A DNA stretch of 23,329 nucleotides, taken from positions 1 to 23,329 of the forward strand of contig JBKJLC010000151.1 of NCBI GenBank assembly GCA_046597055.1, in the 5' to 3' direction. Positions 1 through 22,460 of this stretch are shown here, in pieces (position 1 is the first letter of the stretch; every line of letters starts with the position of its first letter). The translations under genes were made by a program, and so were the position numbers. This stretch comes from Kofleriaceae bacterium (GTDB taxonomy: Bacteria; Myxococcota_A; Polyangia; Haliangiales; Haliangiaceae). Under the pieces are notes generated by a model, which ran no database searches, was not told the origin of the DNA, and was given only the letters and a program-made list of their open reading frames with translations.

Positions 1-232
1 CGTCGATGTTGCCGCGGATCGCCAGCACCGGCGCCACCGCGGCCAGCTCCTCCAGCACGCCGAGATCGCCGATGTCGCCCGCGTGGAGGATCGTCGTCGG
101 GGCCCACGCCGCCAGCAACGCGGTCGCGCGCGGATGCGGGTGCGAGTGGGTGTCGGCGACCACCGCGATCCGCAGCGGGCCGTCGGCCGGCGCCGCGATC
201 GCGGCCGAGGTCTTGAGCAGCGCCTGCGCCAT
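1..232 (-). CDS. Metallophosphoesterase, YfcE/MJ0936-like calcineurin-like family; 5' part only, runs off the window start
   Basis: Own translation from ATG at 232: [31 protein letters not shown]...ILHAGDIGD...LAIRGNID. Contains the DxH, GD and GNxD metallophosphoesterase motifs. Not in the ORF track because the stop lies outside the window. Confidence 0.9.
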
Positions 233-360
233 GCCCGGGTCTACCCCGTGGGCGGCCGCGGCGCCCGTCGCGGGCCCCGCGATCGACCGGTCAGCCGGTG
301 GCGCCCAGCGCCCGGAACCGCCGGCGCTCCCCAGCGGCGTTGCCGCGGATCCCCGCGGTC

Positions 361-3300
361 CTACTGGACGTTGCAGACCAGGTCGACGCCCGCGGTGGTT
401 CCACAATCGGTGCCGATCGGGGTCGCGCTGGTGATCGTCACCCACGTGTTCGACTGGCCGGTGCCGTTGGGGATCTGGAACCTGGCCATCGTCCAGGTGG
501 CGGTCGGGTAGGTCGTCCCGCTGAACGTGATCGCCGCGAGCTGCTGGTTGTAGACCTGGTACGCGTCGCCCTTGCCCGAGGCGGGCACCAGCCCCGACGA
601 CGTCGTGTTGTTGCCGTACTGCACGAAGCCGGTCGCGCAGCCGGCGCCGGCCGCGCTGCGCGCGCTGTTCGCGTAGCTCCAGCTGTTGGTGCCGGTCGCG
701 GTCGGGCTGCAGGTGCCCCAGCTCAGCATCGTGCCCGACAGGGTGCCGGTCGCGTTGCTCGCACAGGTCCGGTTCACGGTCGGCGTGTGGTTGGTGCAGG
801 TCGCGTCGCCGCCGCCGCAGTTGGACAGCGAGCCGGGGTTGTTGAGGAGGTTGAGGCTGTGATCGTTGTTGGCGTGGAGGGTCGCGCCGTTGGTCTGGGT
901 GAACTCGAGCGGCAGGTACCACTCGACCAGGCGCACGGTGCCGGCGCCCGGCACGCCGCTGGCGCTGTTGGTGAAGCGCAGCCGCGCGAAGCCGCGCGCG
1001 AACGTGCCGCCGCCGATGAAGGGCGACGAGTTGGTGGTGCTGGTGAACGGCGGGGTGCTCGCGTTGTTGGTGAGCCCGGTGAAGGTCTGGTTCCCGACGC
1101 CGAAGGTGGTGCCGGCGATCTCGAAGGTGGCGGTGAGCCGGTACACGACGTCGGTATGGGTGCCGCACGACGACGCCAGGCAGGTCGGCGCTGCCCCGCT
1201 CCACCCGGTCGCGCCGCAGGTGCGGGTCGGCGCGCCCACGATCGTGAAGCTCGGGTTGCACGCGTAGGTCGCGGTGGCGCCCAGGGTGGTCGCGGCCGCG
1301 TTCACGGTGCCGTTGGCCGGCGCGGTCAGCGCGCCGCAGTCGAACGGGGTCTGGCAGGTGGTCCCCGCGTAGCCGCTCGCGCACGTACACAGGAAGGTGG
1401 TCGCGCCGGTCGCGCTGCAGGTCCCGTTGTTGAGGCACGGGTTGGGCGAGCACGGGTTGGCGGTCTGCATCATGCAGGTCGGCGCGGTCCCGCTCCAGGT
1501 ACCGCTGGCCTGGCAGGTGCGGGTCGCGCTGCCGTTGAGCGTGAAGGTCGGGTTGCACCCATAGGTCGCGGTGGTGCCGAACGTGGTCGACGCGGTCGGT
1601 GCGGTGGTGATGGTGCCGTTGCCCAGCGTGCCGAGCGGCCCGCAGTCGACCGCGGTGCCGCAGGTCGCGCCGGTGTAGCCGGTGCCGGCGCAGCTGCAGG
1701 TGAAGCTGGTGCCACTGCCCGGGGTGCACACGCCGCCGTGCTGACAGGGCGTGGTGGAGCACGGGTCCGAGACCGCCACGCAGCTCGGGCTGGCGCCGGT
1801 CCAGGTGCCGTTGGGCTGGCAGGTGCGGGTCGGGTTGCCGCTCAGGGTGAAGCCGGTGTCGCACTCGTACTGGGCGACGCCCCCGGCCACCTGCGACGAG
1901 ACGGTGAGGTCGCCGTTGCTGGGCGCGGTGAGCGCGGGGCAGGTCGCGACCGTGTCGCAGGTCGGCCCCGAGTAGCCGGGCCGGCAGGTGCACGCGAAGG
2001 TGGTCGCGCCGGTCGGCGCGCAGCTGCCGCCGTTGGCGCACGGGTTGGGCGTGCACGCCGCGGCGATCTGACAGTTGGTCCCGCCGTAGCCGGTCGGGCA
2101 CGCGCACGTGTAGCTGTTGTCGGGGCCATCGGTGCAGGTGCCGCCGTTGACGCACGGGTTGGCCGCGCAGGCGCCGGCCCCGGTCGCGGTGCAGGTCAGG
2201 CCGTTGCCGGTGTAGCCGGGGTCGCAGACGCAGCGGCCATCGTCGTTGCCGTCGACCGAGCAGGACGCGTGCGAGTTGCAGAACCGACAGTCCTCGTGGG
2301 GGACGCAGAAGGTCTGCGGGTTGGTGCTGCCCGGCACCTGCGAGATGAACTCGGGCATCACCAGCTTGCAGGCCTGGTCGGAGAAGCACTCGAGCCCGTC
2401 GGTGCACGAGCGCAGGCACACGCCGTAGCCGCCGAGGAAGTCGAGGGCGCCGCTGGCGAGCGGCGGGTCGAAGGTCCCCTCGAGGTCGCGCAAGGTCTGG
2501 TCGGTGACGTTGCGGAATGGCGCCAGGCACTTGCCGTGCGGCCCGCACTCGATGTTCGACGCACAGTTGGGCTGGTTCGAGCAGTAGCCGCGCGGGAAGT
2601 CGAGCCCGATCGAAGCCAGGAACTCGGTCGGCGGCAGCGCCGCCTCGAGCGGATGGACCTCGGTCAGGCAGCGCGGGGTGCCGCGGACGTCGCACTGCGC
2701 GTCCGAGCTGCACGCCTCGCCGATCTCGCGATCGGGGACCACCGACTGGGTGCCGCAGGTCGGGCCCGAGAATCCCTCGGCGCAGGTGCAGGTGAAGCTG
2801 GTGCCGGCGGTGGCGCAGGTGCCGCCGTTCTGGCACGGGTTGGGGCTGCAGGCGCCGGCGGTGCAGCCCTCGGGCGGGCAGCTCGGGTCGGGCACGCAGA
2901 ACGAGGCGTCGTTGATCGCGCCCGGCACCAGCGTCACGAAGTCGGTGAGCGGCGGCTCGCACAGCTGCCCGACCTCGCAGTCGGAGGCGGCCGTGCAGGT
3001 GCGCAGGCACACGCCGTAGCTCGGCAGGAAGTCGAGGGTGCCGGCCGAGACTCCGAGCGGCGGCTCGAGCTCGCGCAGGGTGGTGGCGGTCACGTCGCGG
3101 AACGGCCGGTAGCAGGCGCCGCGCGCGCCGCAGTGGGCGTCGCTCGCGCAGTTGAGCACGCTCGAGCAGTAGCCGTCGGGGAACACCAGCCCGAGCGCGG
3201 CGAGCTCGGCGGGCACGCCGGCCAGCGAAGCCAGCGGCTTGATCTCGGCCAGGCACTCGGGCGAGGTCGGGCTCTCGCACTGCGACGCCAGGGTGCAGGG

Positions 3301-3468
3301 CGAGCCGACCGCGCGACCGCTGCTGGGGCCGCTACCGTCGATGGCGGCGTCGGTGGGGGTCGACGTCCCCGATCCGCAGCCGGCGAGCGCGAGCGCCCCG
3401 ATGACGGCGACGACGAGCATCCCGGCCGCACTCGGCAGGAATCCAGCGCGAGCAGGTGAGGCGTGCAT
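361..3468 (-). CDS. Large Cys-rich surface lipoprotein: two 12-Cys repeats, 6 EGF-like and 3 Sushi/CCP modules, unknown ~270-aa C-terminal domain
   Basis: Lipobox LALAG-C (Cys31). EGF patterns such as [26 protein letters not shown]. Sushi patterns such as [44 protein letters not shown]3-rich codons. Confidence 0.9.
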
Positions 3469-3492
3469 GATGAGGAACTCCTGGCGCGAGGT

Positions 3493-4509
3493 TCAGGGCG
3501 TCGCGACCGGCAGCACGTCGCGCAGATCGACGTCGGTCGCGAGCAGGTACGACATCGTGTATGGGGTCGACACCCCGTCGAGGCTGAGCGTATAGCTGCC
3601 ACCGGCGGCCATGCCGTCGTAGATCTCGAGCGCGGCATAGTCGACCGAGCCGCGCACGATCACGTCGGTGGCGCCGCCGGCGCCGCGCATCACGAAGTTG
3701 AGGACGCCGCGCATCATGCCGGCCCCACCGGTATCGACGTCGGTGGTCTGCGGGCCATCGATGACGATGCCGGTCAGATCCTCGAGCTGGTAGTACGAGA
3801 TCAGCGTGTTCGGATCGAGCAGCGCCTCGACGTTGACCGTGAAGCGATTGCGGACCGCGCCGCCGAACTCGGCGGTGGTTCCGACGTACTGGGTCATGCC
3901 CGTGCTGCCGAACCCGAGCAGCCGGGTCTGCGACGTGAACAGCGGCAGGTTGTAGAGGCGGAACACGTCCTCGGCGCCGGCTTGCGTCGTGATGTCGAGC
4001 GCCTCGACCACCGCACCCAGCGCCGTCATGCGCCGGGGCTCCCCGTCGATCGTGACGATCAACTGGGCGCCGTCGGGCTCGATCGACAGCCGCTGATCGA
4101 CTGGCGCGTCGAGATCGGTGCGGACCGCGCCGTCGCGCGAGTAGACCGAGATGTCGGGCTCGTGCGGGAACGTGTACACGAGCTCGTGGACCGCGAGGCC
4201 CTCGCCGTTGGCGCCGAGGGTGTACGAGCCGAACTCCAGCCGGGTCGAGCTGTCGTGCGCGACGAAGCCGCGGCCGTAGCAAGCCGACTGACCGAGCGGC
4301 ACCACCGCGGTCGGCTCGGGCCGGCCCAGCAGCAGGATCTCGGTGCCCTCGGCGGTCGAGCGCAGCCAGGTGCTGGTGGTCTCGACCCGGCCGAGCGCGT
4401 CGACGTCGCACGGCACCAGCGCGTCGCGCAGCCGGCCGAGCCCGTGGATGCCGGACGGGTCGCACCCGGCGACGAGCGCGAAAAGACAGAGCAGGAGGCG
4501 GGTGCGCAT
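3493..4509 (-). CDS. Hypothetical lipoprotein (338 aa), beta-rich, N-terminal part possibly lipocalin-like
   Basis: Start re-called at ATG 4509 (MRTRLLLCLFALVAG-CDPS: charged N-terminus, hydrophobic core, lipobox). The upstream part of track ORF 3493..5337 is an out-of-frame shadow of the barrel gene. Confidence 0.8.
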   Translation of the reverse strand: MRTRLLLCLFALVAGCDPSGIHGLGRLRDALVPCDVDALGRVETTSTWLRSTAEGTEILLLGRPEPTAVVPLGQSACYGRGFVAHDSSTRLEFGSYTLGANGEGLAVHELVYTFPHEPDISVYSRDGAVRTDLDAPVDQRLSIEPDGAQLIVTIDGEPRRMTALGAVVEALDITTQAGAEDVFRLYNLPLFTSQTRLLGFGSTGMTQYVGTTAEFGGAVRNRFTVNVEALLDPNTLISYYQLEDLTGIVIDGPQTTDVDTGGAGMMRGVLNFVMRGAGGATDVIVRGSVDYAALEIYDGMAAGGSYTLSLDGVSTPYTMSYLLATDVDLRDVLPVATP

Positions 4510-4532
4510 CGGGAGGTGCTCGTCGGATGCGG

Positions 4533-5285
4533 TCAGTGGTACCCGGCGAGCGCGAACGAGGTCGCGATCGGGATGACCCAGCTCGCGGGGTTCTTGTGGT
4601 CGGCGAGATCGATCAGGTCGAGCCCGACCGCGACCTGCCCCGACACCGTCAGCCAGCCGTTCAGGACGTAGTCGAGCTTGCCGAGCCCGCCCAGCCCGAC
4701 GCTGACGTTCTCGACCGGCGAGTAGTACGTGGAGGTCAGCGCGAACGCCTGAAAGTGGGCCCCGCCGCCGGCGGTGACGACCAGCCGCGGGGTCATCGGC
4801 AGCCGGCGCCCCACCATCAACATGCCGTCGAAACCTTCGTTGCGCTGATCGTAGTAGCTGCCGAGCGCGCCGGTGAACTCGCCGCTGGGGCCGCTCATCC
4901 GGCCCGACACCAGCGCGAACGCCGAGGCCCGCGCCATGAAGCCCCAGCGCCGGCCGATGAAGTAGTCGTACACGAGCGCCGGTCCATGGATGACGTAGCG
5001 GTCGGAGCGCTCGGTTGCGAACACCACGCCGTGGTAGCCGAGGCCGAGCCCGTGCTGGTGGACCCGCTTGGGCCGCGGCGTGCCCGGTGCCGGGTCCGGC
5101 GCAACCGCGAGCGCAGACGCCGCGGGGGCGCGCGCGGGCGCCTCGGTGAGCGCGTCGGGCGCAGGGGCCGCGCGGGCCCGGCTCGGGGCCGCACACGCCA
5201 GGATGATCACGCTCAGGCCCGCGAGGCCTCGGCTCGCGGCGACGAACGGTCCCGGCTGCACGCGGCGCGATCCAGTCTTCGCCAT
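4533..5285 (-). CDS. Probable small outer-membrane beta-barrel protein
   Basis: AGGAGG 8 nt before ATG. Signal-like segment ending ARA, Pro/Ala linker, then alternating amphipathic strands (GLGLGY, LVYDYF, GKLDYVL, VSGQVAVGLD) and a terminal strand SFALAGYH. Confidence 0.7.
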   Translation of the reverse strand: MAKTGSRRVQPGPFVAASRGLAGLSVIILACAAPSRARAAPAPDALTEAPARAPAASALAVAPDPAPGTPRPKRVHQHGLGLGYHGVVFATERSDRYVIHGPALVYDYFIGRRWGFMARASAFALVSGRMSGPSGEFTGALGSYYDQRNEGFDGMLMVGRRLPMTPRLVVTAGGGAHFQAFALTSTYYSPVENVSVGLGGLGKLDYVLNGWLTVSGQVAVGLDLIDLADHKNPASWVIPIATSFALAGYH

Positions 5286-5305
5286 CCACTGCCCTCCTGC
5301 CGCGC

Positions 5306-5345
5306 AAGCTAGCAGGTCCGGACCGCGAATGAAACACGTTCTACC
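5306..5345 (-). promoter_or_regulatory. Palindromic operator TGAAACACGTTCTA (5330-5343) plus extended -10 TGcTAGCTT for the barrel/lipoprotein/EGF operon
   Basis: Matches TnnAACnnGTTnnA. Near-identical architecture at 22421-22460. Confidence 0.75.
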
Positions 5346-5361
5346 TCAGCCGGAAACGGTT

Positions 5362-6312
5362 TCAGGCATGGGTCGTGCGCGCCGGGTCGGGGCGCGGGGC
5401 GCGGGCCGCGTGCTCGACGGTGGTGCTGGCGCCGGCGAGCTGCGAGGTGAGCAGGCTGCCGCTGCTGCCCGGCGGCAGGAGCGTGATCCGCGCCGCACTC
5501 TCGAGCAAGCGCTGGACCTCGAGCACGTCGAACATCGCGTCGCCGATCTCGCGATCGCGCGAGATCTCGCGCAGGGCGGCGCCGACGATCTCGGGCCGGA
5601 TCGCGGCGGCCCGCGCGAACTCGACCGCGGCCATGCGCTCGGCGCTGCTCGCGATCACGCTGACCTGGTTGGCGCCGTCCTGCCGGATCGCCGAGGTCAC
5701 CTGGCGCAGCCGGTTGACCACCTTCTCCTCGATCTGCTTGGTCATCCCGGCGTCGCGAAAGTGGACCTTGCGGATGTAGATCGAGCCGACCTTGAAGCCC
5801 CAGTCGTGCGAGCGCGGCGACACCTCCTCGCGCACGGTCTGCGACAGCTCGTGGCGGTTCTCGAGCAGCCGGGCCAGCTTCATGTTCGACAGGCAGCGCA
5901 CGGTCGCGTTCGACACGTTGGCGCGCAGCGAGCCGCGCGGATCCTGGTTCTTGAACAGGTACGCGACCGGATCCGAGATGAACATCTCGTACCAGACGCC
6001 GATGCCCATCGGCGCGCCCTCCTCGGAGTTGACCGGCTGCGAGCGCAGGTAGGTCTGGTCGATGCGCAGGTCGAGCACGTAGCGCTTGCCGAGCAGCGGC
6101 ACCAGCAGGGCCTTCAGCCCCATGCGCGGCCACAGCGAGGCCAGCCCGGGCTGGTCGTAGACCGCCGCGACCTTGCCGAACAGCGTGTAGACGTGGGCCT
6201 GGCGCTCCTCGACCACGATGTAGAAGCCGAGCATGCGCAGGAGCGCGAGCAGCAGCGGCACCCCCACGGTGAACGCGACCGCGGACACGACGGCGATGGC
6301 GAACAGCGACAT
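5362..6312 (-). CDS. SPFH (band 7/stomatin/HflC-like) membrane protein, 316 aa
   Basis: ATG at 6312 overlaps the upstream TGA (TGATG). N-terminal TM segment, then FYIVVEERQAHVYTLFGK...PGL, LDLRID, ISDPVAYLF, WGFKVGSIYIRKV, then a coiled-coil-like tail. Confidence 0.88.
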   Translation of the reverse strand: MSLFAIAVVSAVAFTVGVPLLLALLRMLGFYIVVEERQAHVYTLFGKVAAVYDQPGLASLWPRMGLKALLVPLLGKRYVLDLRIDQTYLRSQPVNSEEGAPMGIGVWYEMFISDPVAYLFKNQDPRGSLRANVSNATVRCLSNMKLARLLENRHELSQTVREEVSPRSHDWGFKVGSIYIRKVHFRDAGMTKQIEEKVVNRLRQVTSAIRQDGANQVSVIASSAERMAAVEFARAAAIRPEIVGAALREISRDREIGDAMFDVLEVQRLLESAARITLLPPGSSGSLLTSQLAGASTTVEHAARAPRPDPARTTHA

Positions 6313-7331
6313 CAGCGGAGCTCCATGAAGACGCGGTCGGCGCGCGGGTAGAGCCCGAGCCGCACGTTGCGGAGGTAGGCGGCCAGGGTGTCGGGCCCGA
6401 GCTGCTTGAGCGCGCCCAGCTGGGCGGCCAGCGCGCGCAGCGGCTCGACCTCGGCCTGGGCCTTGAGCGTCTCGATCTCGACCGCGCGCCGCGACAGCAC
6501 GATGCGCTGGTCGGCCGAGGCCTGGGCCAGGCTGATGTCGGACGACACGCTGTTGTGGGCGGTGTTGATCGCGGCCAGCGCCGACTCGACCTCGTGGGGC
6601 GGCGCGATCTCGGTGATGAGCGACGCGTCGAGGTGGACCCCGTAGCGGGCGACCGAGGCGGCGCACTCGGCATCCATCATGTCGTTGAGCAGCCGCAGGT
6701 TCTTGCGCAGGTCGTTGATCGAGATGCCCGAGATCGACGACTGGTCGATCGCGGTCCCGGCCTGGTCGTGGCTGGGCGCCTCGAAGTTGGCGATGCGCTC
6801 GCGCAGGATCGAGATGAAGAAGCCCATGACGTGGGCCGGCGGGTTCTTCACGCCGAACAGGTACGCGTACAGGTTCTGCTCGGAGACGCGGAAGCGGATC
6901 TGCCCGGTCAGGCCGACGTCGAGCTGGTCCTTGGTCACCGCGTCGAGCGTGGTGCCGCCGTGGTTGGCGGCGAGGTTCTCCGGGTCCCACGCCATGTTGA
7001 CGGTCTGGGTCGCGATCGACACCTTGCGCACCTGCTGCCAGGGCCAGCAGAAGTACGGACCGCCCGGGCCGATCACGTCGACCTGCGGATACGCATAGCG
7101 CGCCTTCTCGCTGTCGCGCATGAGGTCGCCTTCGGGCGTGTAGACGGTGGTCGCGCCCAGGATGCGGCGGGCCCGGCCGAAGCTGCACAGCACCGCGCGC
7201 TCGTTCTGATCGACGGTGTAGAAGCCCATGATCACGTAGCGGATCACGAACCACGCCGTGAAGCCGAGCGCGACACCGAGCAGCCAGTCACCGCCGTCCG
7301 CGGCCCGTACCTGCAGCCAGAGTTGTTGCAT
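6312..7331 (-). CDS. SPFH (band 7/stomatin/HflK-like) membrane protein, 339 aa
   Basis: Start re-called at ATG 7331. TM segment, then FYTVDQNERAVLCSFGR, GPGGPYFCWPWQ, AVTKDQ, YGVHLDASLITEIAPP, and an Ala/Glu-rich tail. Confidence 0.88.
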   Translation of the reverse strand: MQQLWLQVRAADGGDWLLGVALGFTAWFVIRYVIMGFYTVDQNERAVLCSFGRARRILGATTVYTPEGDLMRDSEKARYAYPQVDVIGPGGPYFCWPWQQVRKVSIATQTVNMAWDPENLAANHGGTTLDAVTKDQLDVGLTGQIRFRVSEQNLYAYLFGVKNPPAHVMGFFISILRERIANFEAPSHDQAGTAIDQSSISGISINDLRKNLRLLNDMMDAECAASVARYGVHLDASLITEIAPPHEVESALAAINTAHNSVSSDISLAQASADQRIVLSRRAVEIETLKAQAEVEPLRALAAQLGALKQLGPDTLAAYLRNVRLGLYPRADRVFMELR

Positions 7332-7411: not shown

Positions 7412-8140
7412 TCAGATCAGGTCGAGGATCACGCGGACGCCGCCCCCGTACAGCGTCGCGCCGTCGCCGAGCACCGGAAAATCGACCCGGGCATACCCAT
7501 CGATGATCGGCGATCGCGGACCCTTGCCCGGCAGGATCTGGAGCGTCAGCTCCGGGCCCAGGAGCAGCACGGTCTCGTCGGCGAAGCGCGTGGTGGCGGC
7601 CAGCCCCAGCGACACCGGCTTCACCCCGACCGCGGCGCCGAGGCGCCCGGACCAGTCCCCACCGTCGAGCGTGCGTCCGGCCTCGATCATGGCGCGCAGC
7701 CGCGGCTTCTCGAACGTCTTCGGCGTGCGCTCCTCGAGGAACTCGGCGAGCACGTCCTGGTAGATCTGCCGGCTGGTCGCCGCGAGCTCGGCGCCCTCGA
7801 GGGGCCGGCCGCCCGCGGCGGCCTGCTCGATCGCCTCCGCCACGCGGGCCTTGGCGCGGTCGGTCACGATGCCCTTGACGGTCTCGGCGTCGGGGACGAT
7901 CTGCACCTTGAAGATCGAGAGGTCGAAGCCGAACCCGAGGGTCCCGTCGGTGCCGCCGCCATCGGCGACCTGGATGCCGGCGCCGACGAACGGCCCGATG
8001 GCGACCGACCGGCGCGCGCGCTGGATGACGAGCGCGGCGATCCGCCGTGCGGTCGCGTCGTCGGCGTGGGCCGGACGGGCGTCGATCCCGGTCGCCGCGA
8101 TGCCCGCCAGGACCACCATCGGTACGAGCTGCTGGTTCAT
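7412..8140 (-). CDS. Hypothetical exported protein, beta-barrel-like with a helical insertion
   Basis: Purine-rich RBS (GAAGAAGGGA), signal ending AHA-DD, amphipathic strands, C-terminal GGGVRVILDLI. Confidence 0.7.
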   Translation of the reverse strand: MNQQLVPMVVLAGIAATGIDARPAHADDATARRIAALVIQRARRSVAIGPFVGAGIQVADGGGTDGTLGFGFDLSIFKVQIVPDAETVKGIVTDRAKARVAEAIEQAAAGGRPLEGAELAATSRQIYQDVLAEFLEERTPKTFEKPRLRAMIEAGRTLDGGDWSGRLGAAVGVKPVSLGLAATTRFADETVLLLGPELTLQILPGKGPRSPIIDGYARVDFPVLGDGATLYGGGVRVILDLI

Positions 8141-8272: not shown

Positions 8273-8625
8273 GTTTCGGCAGGTGAAGCGCCTGCGCAGG
8301 TTGGTGGCCGGCGCCCCGGAAGGGATCGGCGGTTTCGGGCCGGCCGCCGCACCCGACCGCGCGGTGCTCGCCGCATGTGGTCGCGCCCCGCACCCGCCGA
8401 GATCGCGCGCGCCACCCGTCTGCAACAGCGCGATAGTGCGAACGTTCCGGGCCGCGCTGGAACGAGGGCTGCCGCGCGTCCGATCCGCGGGGGCGTGCTG
8501 CGGACCGCGGTGAGACGTCGTGGTGGCATCTGCTGCGCTTCACTGACAGCATGCGGTCCGGCCCCTGCGCCGACGTGCGCGGTAGTGTCTAGCCCCCGCC
8601 AACGCCCAGCTCGGAGCACCGCCCC

Positions 8626-10014
8626 TTGAGCCAGTCCCTTCGTATCGGCAGCGCTGTCCTCGCAACTCTGGTGATCGCCGTCGCCGCGCCTGGTGGCGCC
8701 GCCGCGGCGCCCAGGCTCCAGCTCACGCCGGAGGGGCACTGGATCCGCCCGGCCGACGGCTGCGGCACCCATCAGGTGAATCGCGCCGGGACCGTGCAGC
8801 AGCACCAGCGCGCGGCCGGCAGCCAGCGCACGGTCTATCTGAACCGCAACGGCGGCACGTATCAGATCGGTGGCGGCGGCGCGACCAACGCCGGCACCAA
8901 CGTCGCCTCGTCGAGCGTCAGCGCCGACGGCCGCGGCCGCACCGCGGTCATCCCGCCGCTGGCGGCCGGGTTCAACTGGTCCGCGATCGCGGCCTGCGTC
9001 CGCGTCCACTACGACAAGTACAACATCCGCGTGGTCGAGACCGAGCCCACCAGCGGCGACTACGTCGAGGCCGTGGTCGGCGGCTTCGGCACCGAGCTCG
9101 GCTTCGGGTCCGACGAGCTGTTCGGCATCGCCTCGGCCGACAACTTCTGCGGGGTCACCGAGCGCGGCATCGCGTTCAACTTCTCGGAGACCCATCGCCA
9201 GGTCCCGCGCAAGGACGACGAGCTGTGCGCGACGATCGCGCACGAGGTCGGCCACCTGCTCGCGCTCGAGCACGAGACCCTCGCCACCGACGTGATGTCG
9301 TACGTCCTCATCGCCGACTCGTCGACCAAGGCGTTCATCGATCAGAACGTCGCGTGCGGCGTCCAGCCCGGCCAGAACCAGCCGTGCTCGTGCGGCACCG
9401 CCCAGACCAACTCGCACGCGCGCCTCGCCCAGTTCGTGGGGACCCGTCCGACCGAGACCGTGGCGCCGACGATCACGCTGGTGTCGCCCGGCGACGACGA
9501 CCGGCTATCGCCGGCCTTCACCGTGGTCGCGACCGCGGCCGACGACCAGGCGATGGAGGGCGTGGCCCTGCTGCTCGACGGCTTCGAGATCGGCAACGAC
9601 TACGAGGCGGTGGGCGACCGCTACGAGATCGCGGTCACCGACATCGCCGAAGGCGAGCACACGCTCGCGGTCGAGGCGCGCGACCAGGCCGGCAACGTCG
9701 CGATGGTCCAGATCAGCGTCATCGTCGCCAAGCTGCCGGCCGGCGAGGTCTGCGTCTCGAGCGCCGAGTGTGCCGGTGCGGTGTGCGCCACCAGCGCCGA
9801 CGGGAACTTCTGCACCCAGACCTGCGACGTCGCCAGCGACAGCTGCCCGTCCGACTTCGCCTGCTCCGAGGTCGCGGTCGGGCCTGCGCTGTGCGTGCCC
9901 GACGAGGACGCCGGCGGCTGTTGCTCGACCGGCGGCGGTCACCCCGCCTCGACCGCGCTGCTCGTGGTCGGCCTCGGCCTGCTGCTGGTGCGCCGCCGGC
10001 GCCGCGCTGCCTGA
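8626..10014 (+). CDS. Secreted metzincin (matrixin/M10-like) zinc metalloprotease with Ig-like (Big) domain, Cys-rich module and MYXO-CTERM-like anchor
   Basis: TTG start with GGAG upstream and a signal peptide. HEVGHLLALEH (9241-9273) followed by Met-turn DVMSY. APTITLVSP...GEHTLAVEARDQAGN is an Ig-like pattern. C-terminus GGCC..TM..RRRRR. Confidence 0.85.
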   Translation: MSQSLRIGSAVLATLVIAVAAPGGAAAAPRLQLTPEGHWIRPADGCGTHQVNRAGTVQQHQRAAGSQRTVYLNRNGGTYQIGGGGATNAGTNVASSSVSADGRGRTAVIPPLAAGFNWSAIAACVRVHYDKYNIRVVETEPTSGDYVEAVVGGFGTELGFGSDELFGIASADNFCGVTERGIAFNFSETHRQVPRKDDELCATIAHEVGHLLALEHETLATDVMSYVLIADSSTKAFIDQNVACGVQPGQNQPCSCGTAQTNSHARLAQFVGTRPTETVAPTITLVSPGDDDRLSPAFTVVATAADDQAMEGVALLLDGFEIGNDYEAVGDRYEIAVTDIAEGEHTLAVEARDQAGNVAMVQISVIVAKLPAGEVCVSSAECAGAVCATSADGNFCTQTCDVASDSCPSDFACSEVAVGPALCVPDEDAGGCCSTGGGHPASTALLVVGLGLLLVRRRRRAA

Positions 10015-11613: not shown

Positions 11614-11664
11614 TGGAACATGTTCTATTTTCGAGCTCGTGGCCCCGGGCCCGCGTGCTAGCGT
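11614..11664 (+). promoter_or_regulatory. Palindromic operator TGGAACATGTTCTA (11614-11627) plus extended -10 TGcTAGCGT (-10 at 11659-11664)
   Basis: Matches TnnAACnnGTTnnA. The -10 ends 7 nt before ATG 11672, with no SD sequence. Confidence 0.75.
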
Positions 11665-11671
11665 CTCGGCC

Positions 11672-12127
11672 ATGACAGCCCGGGCCGGGTCGATCGTCGG
11701 TGTGATCGTGTCGGTGGGGCTGCTGGCCCGCGCCGCGAGCTCGAACCCACCGCCGGTGCCGCCGGCCGCCTCCGCGGCGGTCGCGGCCGCCGAGGCGCCG
11801 CGCGGCATGGTCGCGTTCGTCGCCGGGGCCGCGTGCCCGCCGGGGTGGCAGGTCTCGACCCTCGCCGCCGGGCGCGTGCTGGTCGGCACCGACCGGGCCG
11901 AGGCGGTCGGCCGCGTGGTCGGCGAGCCGCTCGGCGCCGAGGAGGATCGCGCCCACGTCCACGCGCTGGGCGTCGCGAACCTCACCCTGCCGGCGCGGGC
12001 GATCGCCGGCGCCGACGGCGGCAACCACAACGGCGCGGCCTCCGGCGCCCAGCCGCTCACCGGGACCACCGGGGCGGCCAGCTCGGGGCTGCCGTTCGTG
12101 CAGCTCCCCGCGTGCGTGTCGCCGTGA
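11672..12127 (+). CDS. Exported phage tail-collar-like protein (one domain)
   Basis: Signal-like N-terminus ending ARA. PRGMVAFVAGAACPPGW...GRVLVG...VG...HVH...PFVQLPAC matches the collar/short tail-fibre pattern. Confidence 0.72.
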   Translation: MTARAGSIVGVIVSVGLLARAASSNPPPVPPAASAAVAAAEAPRGMVAFVAGAACPPGWQVSTLAAGRVLVGTDRAEAVGRVVGEPLGAEEDRAHVHALGVANLTLPARAIAGADGGNHNGAASGAQPLTGTTGAASSGLPFVQLPACVSP

Positions 12128-12963
12128 GCCGCGCGCAGCGAGGCGGCCGGCTCGCCACGATCCTGGCGGCGGCGCTCGCGGGCGCGTGCGCCGGCAGCTC
12201 GGCCGGCGGCGACGCGCCGGTGGACGCCGTGGTCGAGCCCGAGCCCGACGCGGCCGTGACCACGCGCGGCGACGGCTTCCCGCCCGGCGCGATCTCGTTC
12301 TTCATGGCGACGTTCTGCCCGGCCGGCTGGTCGCCGTACGCTGACGCGGTCGGGCGCACGATCATCCCGTCGCCCGGGGCGGGCGCCGGCATGCCGGTCG
12401 GCACCGCGTGGGCCGCCAACCAGGAGCCGGCCCACCGCCACGCCCTCGCGATCGCGGTCGATCTGCCGGCGGTCAGCTACGTCGGCATCGTCGGCGGCGG
12501 CAACCACGGCGTCACCCGTGGCGGCCGGGTCGAGGGCACCGCGGCCACCGACGCGACCGTCGACGCGGTGCCCTACGCGCAGCTGCGGGTCTGCCGCAAG
12601 ACCGCGCCGTCCGGCGACCGGACACCCCCGCGCGGCGTGATCGCGTTCTTCGCCACCCCGGCGTGCCCGGCGCCGTGGACCGAGGCGGCGACCGCGCTGC
12701 ACGGCCGGGTGATGGTCGCGCTGCCGGCCGGCGGCACCCCGGGGGCGACCTTCGGGGGCGAGCCGCTGGCGCCGGGCGAGGCGCGCACCCACGTCCATCC
12801 GGTGACCGCCACCCTGGCCGCGGCCGCCCACGGCATCGGGCTGGCGAGCGGCTGCTGCGGCGGGGGCTACGGCGCGGCCGGCACCCACGTGACCACGACC
12901 ACCGCGGCGCCCGCGCCGGTCGACGTGCCGTACCTCCAGCTGCTCGCCTGCCTGGCGCCGTGA
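12124..12963 (+). CDS. Lipoprotein with two tandem tail-collar-like domains
   Basis: GTG overlaps the upstream TGA (GTGA). Lipobox-like LAGA-C. Domain 1: PPGAISFF..CPAGW..GRT..HRH..PYAQLRVC. Domain 2: PRGVIAFF..CPAPW..GRV..HVH..PYLQLLAC. Confidence 0.75.
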   Translation: MSRAQRGGRLATILAAALAGACAGSSAGGDAPVDAVVEPEPDAAVTTRGDGFPPGAISFFMATFCPAGWSPYADAVGRTIIPSPGAGAGMPVGTAWAANQEPAHRHALAIAVDLPAVSYVGIVGGGNHGVTRGGRVEGTAATDATVDAVPYAQLRVCRKTAPSGDRTPPRGVIAFFATPACPAPWTEAATALHGRVMVALPAGGTPGATFGGEPLAPGEARTHVHPVTATLAAAAHGIGLASGCCGGGYGAAGTHVTTTTAAPAPVDVPYLQLLACLAP

Positions 12964-20890: not shown

Positions 20891-22393
20891 TCAATAATCG
20901 ACCAGGTTGGCGGCGCGCCCCACCGGGCCCACCGGGGCCGTGACCGCGCCGGTGCCACCCGCGCCGCCGAGGCCGCCAGTGCCGATCTCGATCACGTTGG
21001 CGCCCGGCTCCCCGGTGGCGTTGAGCCCGCCAGCGACCACCGCGACGCCGATCGACGGGCCGCCCGCGCCCCCGGCGCCGCCCCCGCCGTGGCCGCCATG
21101 CCCGCCAATCCCACCGGCGGCGCCGGCCCCGGCGCGGTACGTGATGGCGCCGCACTGCTGCGACGGTGCGCCCTGCCGACCCGCGCTGCCGTCGGTGCTG
21201 CCGGGTCCGCCGGGATGGCCGTCGCCGCCGACGCCGCCGGCGCCGCCGAGCCCGCCGATGATCGCGACCGCCTCGACCGACAGGGTCGCGCGGATGATGA
21301 CGACCCCGAACGCCCCGCCGCCCCCGCCGCCAGTCGCGCCGCCCCCGCCGCCGCAGCCGCCCGGCGCGCCGTCGCCGCCGCGGCCGCCAGGCAGCGTGCC
21401 GCAGCCGAAACACACCCGGAACCGCTTGCTGCCACCCGAGCCACCGCCGCTGCCGCCGGTGCCGTGGGCGCCGCGCCGCCCGGGCTCGCCGGCGGCTGCC
21501 ACCCAGACGTCCTCCTCGAAGCGGCCGTCGTCGTCGGTCGCGGGCACGCCGGACCCGCCGGCGCCGCCGTTGTTGCCGTTGCCGCCGACGCCCCCGCCGC
21601 TGATGCCGTCGCTGCCGACCAGCGGGCAGGCGTTGGGGCAGTTGCTGCCGCCGGACGTGCCGGGCGCGCTGGCGCTCGCGGGATCGCCGCCGGCGTCGCC
21701 CAGCCGGCCGCTGTTGCCGCCGCAGTCGTAGGCGGTGCCGCCGTCGCCGCCCCGGACCAGACAGCTGGTGAGCGCGCCATCGTCGCCGGGCGCGCCGCGC
21801 GCGCCGCGGCCGGCCTCGATCCGCACCGAGCGGAGCTGCACCGCATCGCCGGTGTCGCGCACGCGCAGCGCGATGCTGGAGCTGCCATCGGTGCGCGCGC
21901 TCAGGTCCGCGCCGCGGAGGGTCACCCCGTCGACGACCGTGGCGGCGATCAGCGCCTCGGCGGTGACCGTGACCGGCAGCTCGCTGGTGAGCACCACCGG
22001 ATAGACCACGAGATCGCGGGTCGCGAACCCGGGCGCCCAGCCGCCCTCGAGGTCGACGCCGGCCGCCAGCGCGATCGACTCCTGATAGAGGCCCTCGGCG
22101 ATCCGCACCGCGCACGGCCCCGGGACACAGCCGCCGGCGCGCTCGATCGCGACCGCGACGTGGCGGAGCGGCTGGGCCGGGTCGCGCCCGGTGTTCGAGT
22201 CGTGCCCGTCGATCGAGACGAACAGGATCGGTGGCGGCGGGCCATCGTCCGGGCTGGCACCGTCCGCGGGGGCGTCGGTGGTCACCGCGCCGTCACCGCC
22301 ATCGCCGTCGGGGCCCGCGCCGGTGCGCGCGTTCGCGCACGCGGCCAGCACGGCCGTGATCGCGGCTGCCTGGAATATCTTCCCTCCGAGCAT
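20891..22393 (-). CDS. Lipoprotein with a DUF1565/parallel beta-helix-like N-terminal domain and a Gly-rich (PE-PGRS-like) region with Cys pairs
   Basis: GAGGAGG RBS; lipobox LAA-C; LFVSIDGHDSNTG..PLR...VRIAEGLYQESI.L..GV.LEGG; GGxGGxGG tracts. Confidence 0.85.
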   Translation of the reverse strand: MLGGKIFQAAAITAVLAACANARTGAGPDGDGGDGAVTTDAPADGASPDDGPPPPILFVSIDGHDSNTGRDPAQPLRHVAVAIERAGGCVPGPCAVRIAEGLYQESIALAAGVDLEGGWAPGFATRDLVVYPVVLTSELPVTVTAEALIAATVVDGVTLRGADLSARTDGSSSIALRVRDTGDAVQLRSVRIEAGRGARGAPGDDGALTSCLVRGGDGGTAYDCGGNSGRLGDAGGDPASASAPGTSGGSNCPNACPLVGSDGISGGGVGGNGNNGGAGGSGVPATDDDGRFEEDVWVAAAGEPGRRGAHGTGGSGGGSGGSKRFRVCFGCGTLPGGRGGDGAPGGCGGGGGATGGGGGGAFGVVIIRATLSVEAVAIIGGLGGAGGVGGDGHPGGPGSTDGSAGRQGAPSQQCGAITYRAGAGAAGGIGGHGGHGGGGAGGAGGPSIGVAVVAGGLNATGEPGANVIEIGTGGLGGAGGTGAVTAPVGPVGRAANLVDY

Positions 22394-22420: not shown

Positions 22421-22460
22421 AGGCTAGCAGGGTCATGGCATCGGTGAAACATGTTCTACC
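22421..22460 (-). promoter_or_regulatory. Palindromic operator TGAAACATGTTCTA (22445-22458) plus extended -10 TGcTAGCCT for the Gly-rich lipoprotein gene
   Basis: Identical at 15/16 nt to 5330-5345, with the same spacing to CCTGCTAGC. Confidence 0.75.

Follow-up and report, generated by a model that had tools for sequence, protein, structure and literature searches.

The window examined here, a 23,329-nucleotide stretch of DNA from a Kofleriaceae bacterium (contig JBKJLC010000151.1), carries on its minus strand three adjacent genes, here named A, B and C, which as judged from sequence form one promoter-operator unit within a regulon of the KstR type. Gene A (4533–5285) encodes a 250-residue protein with a signal peptide, an Ala/Pro-rich linker and a predicted eight-stranded β-barrel; gene B (3493–4509) encodes a 338-residue lipoprotein (Cys16) with two predicted barrel domains; and gene C (361–3468) encodes a 1035-residue lipoprotein (Cys31) composed of the domains X1 and X2, an array of EGF and Sushi modules, and a C-terminal domain. 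The intergenic gaps measure 23 nt between A and B (4510–4532) and 24 nt between B and C (3469–3492). An initial annotation of the window had described three co-oriented genes with these gaps, each with an export signal; the open reading frames do lie on one strand at these distances, and the export signals are legible in the sequences as an A-x-A site in A and as lipoboxes in B and C.

Upstream of A, a KstR-type operator, TAGAACGTGTTTCA (5330–5343, minus strand), which fits TnnAACnnGTTnnA, occupies the -35 position of a putative promoter, whose extended -10-like element, CTGCTAGCTT (CTGnTAnnnT; 5306–5315, minus), is followed by a ribosome-binding site, AGGAGGG (5292–5298, minus), at a distance of 6 nt from the start codon (ATG) of A. 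A second, degenerate KstR-type box, TGAAACCGTTTCCG (5351–5364, minus), has lost its GTT half and overlaps the stop codon of the SPFH gene located upstream. When the upstream regions of eight homologous loci are aligned, 13 of the 14 positions of the proximal box TAGAACGTGTTTCA are invariant, and all eight keep the box, the CTGnTAnnnT element (columns C69, T70, G71, T73, A74 and T78) and, within the ribosome-binding site, the AGG core; further upstream conservation is lost, and the boxes stand out as conserved islands amid diverged sequence. The consensus reads TAGAACrTGTTTCA for the proximal box, CTGnTAnnnT 14–15 nt after it, and AGGAGG before the start codon. All nine close A-B loci have a KstR-type box, and in seven of the nine two boxes lie exactly 21 nt apart, the distal copy being degenerate in the window; the contig of locus L022 ends 6 nt before its box. 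The same arrangement of box, spacer and CTGCTAGC is found at both other boxes in the window. A scan of positions 1–5800 for sigma-70 consensus promoters gave no site, and one terminator-like site was found in the same region, on the opposite strand and at chance level. The single operator-bearing promoter that the initial annotation had placed ahead of the three genes is thus supported by a box, a -10-like element and a ribosome-binding site that are conserved together upstream of A.

The palindrome TAGAAC(N2)GTTCTA, with the core TnnAACnnGTTnnA, is described in the available part of PMC1995591 as the motif of KstR, the repressor of a mycobacterial cholesterol and lipid regulon, and a published KstR binding probe carries tagaacacgtttca (PMC1995591, same part). 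Since the operator upstream of A corresponds to this known box, the cassette is placed in a cholesterol-catabolism regulon. The initial annotation had not recognized the combination of genes as a named system; the combination is indeed unnamed, but the operator is the known KstR box, and the regulon context had gone unseen.

The rest of the genome agrees with this placement. In the genome from which the window derives (G000), the core motif occurs 50 times, as compared with 6 and 6 occurrences for controls of the same composition, and the strict form of the motif 16 times, as compared with 1 and 0 (15 versus 3 in another count). One box, at C1:9994, is located between a TetR gene (TetR_N and TetR_C_20 domains) and a divergent KstD homologue (E = 4e-105 to 3-oxosteroid 1-dehydrogenase), and the best solved relatives of the TetR protein are Mycobacterium tuberculosis KstR structures (5aqc, 5cw8, 3mnl; E = 6e-19). 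Boxes are also present at two Rieske KshA-like genes (the one scanned against Pfam contains Rieske and KshA_C domains), at an Ech gene and the CYP125 homologue that diverges from it (E = 1e-103 to steroid C26-monooxygenase), and at a Mce-type operon of ABC_tran, two MlaE genes and MlaD. The other boxed genes comprise a FadE/SDR pair, a FadD pair, a CoA-transferase, SCP2, an SDR/alpha-beta-hydrolase pair and a GMC oxidoreductase. The operator, a KstR-like repressor with its own box, and boxed steroid genes are all present, which on sequence grounds makes the cassette a member of a KstR-type regulon. The regulon genes are distributed over contigs C1, C48, C117, C161 and C298 (loci L061–L064).

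The motif is likewise enriched in the four other genomes that contain the cassette (14 versus 4, 16 versus 1, 22 versus 4 and 22 versus 3), where the boxes cluster on the contigs that carry KshA. KshA itself is found in five of the five cassette genomes and in 12 of the 56 others, an association that is not an independent test, because the genomes are kin.

A and B were detected in the same five of 61 related genomes scanned: G000, G003, G008 and G009, which belong to one genus, and G044, from another family. The gene order A-B-C is kept in all four of the other genomes, in which C is 75–80%, B 66–72% and A 50–63% identical to the window's proteins. Translated similarity to the window ends at about 345 and about 5180, and neither in the other genomes nor in metagenome contigs are the flanks related to one another or to those of the window. 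These limits and flanks define a self-contained cassette with a patchy distribution, present in four of the 17 genomes of the genus. Gene-neighbourhood conservation, which the initial annotation had proposed as a check, is therefore found, the three genes co-occurring as a block, in the same order, in five of the 61 genomes; and the arrangement is beyond chance, because that order recurs in four other genomes with non-syntenic flanks. The two SPFH genes upstream of A were considered as part of the unit and rejected, being non-syntenic in the other cassette genomes. In G009, an ERG4/ERG24-family sterol reductase (E = 4.7e-76; L012, that is G009:C341, 2178–3692, minus strand) is located two genes from the cassette, and an exact KstR-type box (G009:C341:5527; about 3528 in L012) lies near its 5′ end.

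Related genomes and public collections together provided 17 distinct B loci, once L015–L017, which duplicate L011–L013, had been set aside together with L020, whose figures equal those of L012, and L026, whose protein is identical to that of L018. A is found directly upstream of B in 15 of the 17, the exceptions being L019 and L033, whereas the gene after B varies: C in nine loci, a DNRLRE-domain lipoprotein in L022, and nothing comparable in seven. Distant A-B pairs, with B at 21–46% identity, occur in L018 (a metagenome-assembled genome, MAG, of Polyangiales), G144 and G174, the last of which has two A-B pairs in tandem and a third besides; in three distant pairs (L032, L034 and L035) the stop codon of A overlaps the start codon of B, and C is absent beside the distant pairs. 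Because the distant pairs exist, A adjoins B in 15 of 17 loci, and C accompanies them only in some, the evolutionary core of the cassette is the A-B pair of barrel and lipoprotein, and C is a lineage-specific third gene. The DNRLRE-domain lipoprotein of L022 (2051–2878, plus strand; NF033679, E = 9.8e-18) follows a KstR-boxed A-B pair in the place of C. A 2,4-dienoyl-CoA-reductase-like gene, recognized by eye, is found near A-B in L034 (G174:C25, 6585–9824, minus strand) and in L018; also judged by eye from translations, TetR genes lie near the L018 pair and after B in L032.

At the N-terminus of protein A, a basic n-region and a hydrophobic core lead to an A-x-A site near residue 39, beyond which lies the Ala/Pro-rich linker (residues ~40–72). 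The AlphaFold2 (AF2) model, computed with 21 sequences, forms a barrel of about 178 residues and eight long strands (residues 73–250, nt 4536–5069) at pLDDT >90, and hydrophobicity alternates between the faces of the strands. Foldseek matched the model to OmpA, NspA, Ail, OmpW and OprG (E = 5.6e-7 to 1e-4), and VIA gave NspA as the closest neighbour (Z = 16.2, 153/155 residues), followed by OmpW (15.7), OmpA (15.7), OprF (14.2), PagL (12.1) and AlkL (10.2); the alignments to NspA, OmpW, OmpA and OprF, at Z of 14–16, extend over 130–159 residues. As modelled, A is an eight-stranded outer-membrane barrel of the OmpA-TM/NspA/OmpX/OmpW fold, and the small membrane barrel that the initial annotation had read from the 250-residue sequence is recovered here with high confidence; the outcome that the annotation had named as refuting, a 250-residue protein that fails to model as such a barrel, did not arise. 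By sequence A falls outside every Pfam and NCBIfam family at E ≤ 1, the OmpW family included, and its profile gave chance-level matches or none against PDB sequences; the family is small and unnamed (22 clusters in 5.8 billion proteins). We rejected the possibility that A is itself a lipoprotein, as the candidate Cys31 ('ILAC') is not kept in homologues.

In A, Tyr145, Asp153, His177, Asp226 and His230 are invariant even in homologues of 19–24% identity, and the strand face on which His177 sits is the less hydrophobic one; Ser189 is lost in the distant homologues. Three loops contain the highly conserved motifs MSGPSG, YSPVE and DLxDHxNP, and by the usual topology of such barrels these loops would face outward. 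Conserved outer loops are unusual among barrels of this size, and those of A suggest a docking or active site.

The lipobox of B is LVAG|C16, and Cys16 is kept throughout two alignments, of 44 and of 22 sequences. The AF2 model (pLDDT 90.7, pTM 0.87) consists of an N-terminal calycin/lipocalin-like barrel (residues 43–170, nt 4000–4383) and a C-terminal helix-plus-barrel domain (residues 171–327, nt 3529–3999). In VIA the best match to residues 43–170 is VtrC (Z = 8.3; 98 residues, root-mean-square deviation 3.1, 4% identity), with Tp0751 (7.2), a Bacteroides lipocalin-family protein (7.1), ToxS (5.7), and Blc and ApoD (~5.3–5.4) further down; residues 170–327 match assorted barrels at Z of 5.8–7. 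The initial annotation had found the N-terminal half reminiscent of lipocalin-like folds, which holds at the level of the fold, where the VIA matches are barrels, but only at a borderline score (Z = 8.3). The other searches returned little: a Foldseek search of B against the PDB gave nothing at E ≤ 1e-3, no Pfam or NCBIfam family, lipocalins included, was matched at E ≤ 1, the B profile found chance-level matches or none among PDB sequences, and the top score in the ESM Atlas was only 0.85, to unnamed lipoprotein clusters. The B family is small and unnamed, with 46 clusters in 5.8 billion proteins, and is present in three of 401 genomes that sample the phylum, the same three being found with a broader B profile.

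Protein C has the lipobox LALAG|C31. In Myxococcus xanthus the signal that holds a lipoprotein in the inner membrane is Lys at position +2, according to the available text of PMC3222651; B and C both lack Lys at this position, which would be compatible with a place at the outer membrane. Pfam detects EGF modules in six stretches of C (E = 2.6e-31; 107.9 bits against a cut-off of 21.5) and Sushi modules in three (E = 5.8e-28; 97.5 bits against 20.7), and with these scores above the gathering cut-offs and a lipobox in place, the EGF/Sushi lipoprotein of the initial annotation is confirmed. From the N-terminus the modules are X1 (residues 55–195, 12 Cys; nt 2884–3306), EGF1 (nt 2755–2880), X2 (residues 250–392; nt 2293–2721), the array EGF2–4, Sushi1, EGF5, Sushi2, EGF6, Sushi3 (nt 1180–2289), and the C-terminal domain of about 270 residues and 8 Cys (nt 364–1173). 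Residues 429–707 match complement receptors, Notch and Delta in a search of PDB sequences.

The X domain occurs in C-type proteins only (22 clusters, all with EGF and Sushi modules, and the same five of 61 genomes). The C-terminal domain has 43 representative clusters; it is C-terminal in the full-length matches, and of 20 proteins scanned among the 43, 16 carry EGF or Sushi repeats ahead of it. In six orthologues 76 of the 83 Cys residues of C are kept, and conservation is highest in X1, X2 and the C-terminal domain (80–82%, with 62–82% for the spacer modules). Pfam at E ≤ 10 returned nothing meaningful for X1 and the C-terminal domain, and the ESM Atlas no usable match for the latter; by sequence comparison both X and the C-terminal domain are new. 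An autotransporter-like barrel was considered for the C-terminal domain and abandoned, given its 8 Cys and the lack of a terminal aromatic residue. In all, four modules of the cassette lie outside the Pfam and NCBIfam families: the barrel of A, the twin-calycin lipoprotein B, X, and the C-terminal domain of C.

Based on these observations, we propose with moderate confidence that the cassette is an outer-membrane module for the acquisition of sterols, or of a similar hydrophobic substrate, within an actinobacterial-type cholesterol regulon. By binding one or two operators across the -35 region of an extended -10 promoter, a KstR-type TetR repressor would keep the operon silent, and the operon would be released together with cyp125, kstD, kshA, fadD/fadE/ech and the Mce-type transporter. 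C, a long lipid-anchored EGF/Sushi stalk that bears a distal head and two Cys-rich domains, would make contact with material that contains sterols; B, with its two calycin barrels, would hold the hydrophobic ligand; and A would dock B and let the ligand cross the lipopolysaccharide layer and so reach the outer membrane or the periplasm, a role like that proposed for AlkL/OmpW-family barrels with other hydrophobic molecules, after which the co-regulated Mce system would take over. The location of B and C, the A-B contact, the identity of the ligand and the direction of transport are points that we infer. A diderm cell has to bring sterol across the lipopolysaccharide leaflet, a task for which three exported envelope proteins would be suited. 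In a more specific version of the proposal, which we put forward only tentatively, the EGF/Sushi stalk acts as a 'fishing rod' that reaches eukaryotic sterol-containing membranes or particles, the head and Cys-rich domains extract the sterol, and B relays it to A and on to Mce, with KstR as the switch.

Several observations weigh against a role in sterol acquisition. Twelve of the 17 KshA-positive relatives lack the cassette, including four of eight in the same genus, and so steroid catabolism does not depend on the cassette. The two other boxes in the window precede further secreted proteins that lack a family: the box TGGAACATGTTCTA (11614–11627), with a CTGCTAGC -10-like element, lies ahead of a secreted protein (11639–12124, plus strand), and the box at 22445–22458 ahead of a 500-residue lipoprotein (20894–22393, minus strand) with no Pfam family. 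The regulon is thus broader than catabolism, and membership alone does not specify transport. A KstR box was found at none of the four distant A-B pairs examined, from which it follows that the ancestral role of A-B need not concern sterols. As for the proteins, small eight-stranded barrels of the OmpA and NspA kind mostly serve as anchors rather than as channels, and A is tied between OmpA/NspA and OmpW in VIA; the structural matches of B do not exceed Z = 8.3, which is borderline and may reflect a mere common arrangement; B has Asp at +2, which in Escherichia coli means retention in the inner membrane; and, to our knowledge, EGF and Sushi domains have no sterol role.

Other functions were weighed against the same evidence. 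C could be a stalked adhesin or receptor for eukaryotic prey, host or kin cells, with A and B serving only to anchor or display it and with KstR control using sterol as a cue for eukaryotic material, no ligand being transported. The building blocks of C are adhesion modules of the eukaryotic type, its distal head is conserved and sits behind EGF/Sushi stalks that differ in length (with as many as 15 Sushi repeats), the head, X1 and X2 are the parts most strongly kept, and L022 places another putative glycan-binding lipoprotein where C would stand. We nonetheless consider this explanation rather unlikely: the A-B pair is kept without a third gene in seven of 17 loci, so that its role cannot be only the display of C, and the twin calycin barrels of B are folds that typically hold ligands. 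A could alternatively be an outer-membrane enzyme similar to PagL or PagP that modifies or hydrolyses a lipid presented by B, such as sterol esters or outer-leaflet lipids. The five polar residues that survive at 19–24% identity, the position of His177, the conserved motifs in the presumed outer loops and the structural proximity of PagL would all suit a catalytic site; but A matches neither the PagL nor the PagP family in Pfam, Ser189 is lost in distant homologues, and polar interiors are normal in small barrels, and we judge an enzymatic role to be unlikely.

The cassette might instead protect the envelope, by buffering or removing membrane-perturbing steroids or intermediates, or remodel the outer membrane when the cell grows on sterols. 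Its co-regulation with the catabolism genes would be compatible with such a task, and in other bacteria outer-membrane lipoproteins of the lipocalin type have been connected with the upkeep of membranes; the cassette, however, has no energy-coupled partner, and a long stalk of extracellular type such as that of C is difficult to reconcile with buffering, which makes protection or export quite improbable. That A, B and C are mere neighbours without a joint function is very improbable indeed, as the same order, short gaps and common promoter-operator recur in nine loci with unrelated flanks, and as distant A-B pairs have overlapping stop and start codons. Acquisition of a sterol or similar hydrophobic substrate remains our preferred reading.

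The remainder of the window contains the following genes. Upstream of A are two adjacent SPFH/Band-7 genes (5365–6312 and 6315–7331) and, upstream of these, a gene for a 242-residue secreted protein without a family (7415–8140), all on the minus strand; downstream of C is a YfcE-like phosphoesterase gene. A plus-strand gene at 8593–10014 encodes a secreted protein in which an HEVGH zinc-protease-like motif can be seen by eye in the translation, and its 3′ part is weakly similar, when translated, to the Cys-rich regions of C orthologues. The boxed small secreted protein is followed by a lipoprotein gene (~12133–12960, plus strand) that contains a Cys-containing domain of about 130 residues twice; neither protein has a Pfam match, and the next open reading frame is SDR-like as judged by eye.

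Among systems that pair a barrel with a surface protein, the myxobacterial TraA/TraB pair, in which a Cys-rich stalked surface protein is encoded with an outer-membrane β-barrel protein, resembles the cassette in these two parts. C, however, has an N-terminal lipobox, ends in ...VCNVQ without a MYXO-CTERM signal and has no PA14 domain in the Pfam scan, and A lacks an OmpA-type peptidoglycan-binding domain; on the anchoring and domain content of C and the architecture of A, we discarded membership of the TraAB system. The Slam system uses a 14-stranded DUF560 barrel with a TPR domain, to which A, with an eight-stranded barrel of ~178 residues and no Pfam match, does not correspond. SusC/SusD consists of a TonB-dependent 22-stranded barrel and the SusD lipoprotein, and no such domains are found in A, B or C with Pfam.

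The lipocalin-like periplasmic barrels VtrC and ToxS are related to the cassette through B, VtrC being the best structural neighbour of its first domain. VtrC is a bile-salt receptor, and its ligand is a steroid acid (PMC4933562, available part). VtrC and ToxS, which are not lipoproteins, partner membrane transcription factors, whereas B is a lipoprotein and has a second barrel domain. A parallel in function is offered by the 14-stranded barrel FadL and the lipase VolA. In Vibrio cholerae the surface lipoprotein VolA is encoded with this outer-membrane lipid channel and serves the use of exogenous lipids, as related in the accessible portion of PMC3656444; the combination of a lipoprotein and an outer-membrane barrel for external lipids would be common to both cases, but the sequences of A, B and C are not related to those of the Vibrio proteins, and the fold of B is not that of a hydrolase. 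AlkL, OmpW and OprG are eight-stranded barrels proposed to admit hydrophobic molecules, and AlkL is encoded among alkane-degradation genes (PMC7474606, PMC2993939 and PMC5376172, in the parts available). A is similar to them in size and strand number, and is likewise encoded in a regulon for the catabolism of hydrophobic substrates; it differs in having no OmpW-family sequence match, in being equally near to NspA/OmpA, and in its obligate lipoprotein partner gene. AlkL among the alk genes and the VolA-FadL pair may thus be regarded as functional analogues of the cassette, to the extent that these sources describe them.

The regulon itself is best compared with the KstR regulon of Mycobacterium and Rhodococcus, which includes the Mce4 sterol importer. 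The palindromic operator, the KstR-related TetR protein, its autoregulatory divergent arrangement, and the boxes before kstD, kshA, cyp125, fadD/fadE/ech and a Mce-type transporter are all alike. The host here is a diderm Myxococcota MAG from an uncultured lineage, and A-B-C has no counterpart in the actinobacterial regulon as laid out in the available part of PMC1995591. According to the portion of the review PMC6678751 at hand, (i) the mechanisms of steroid uptake have been elusive, above all in Gram-negative bacteria with their outer membrane, and (ii) CYP125/142 and mce-like systems for side-chain-bearing sterols are absent from Proteobacteria. A search of open-access papers, judged in part by their titles, found none on steroid catabolism in myxobacteria, subscription literature lying outside the search, and the same holds for this finding of a Myxococcota MAG with an actinobacterial-type cholesterol gene set behind KstR boxes. 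Being under the same operator as the CYP125, KstD, KshA and Mce genes, the cassette is a concrete and testable candidate for the missing outer-membrane step. If the more specific version of the proposal is correct, it would be the first described route of sterol import across the outer membrane, in a Gram-negative predator or saprophyte, and would show how an actinobacterial-type cholesterol regulon has been adapted to a diderm envelope. The cassette combines parts of known kinds, an outer-membrane barrel and lipoproteins under a catabolic repressor, with undescribed protein families and in an unexpected host phylum.

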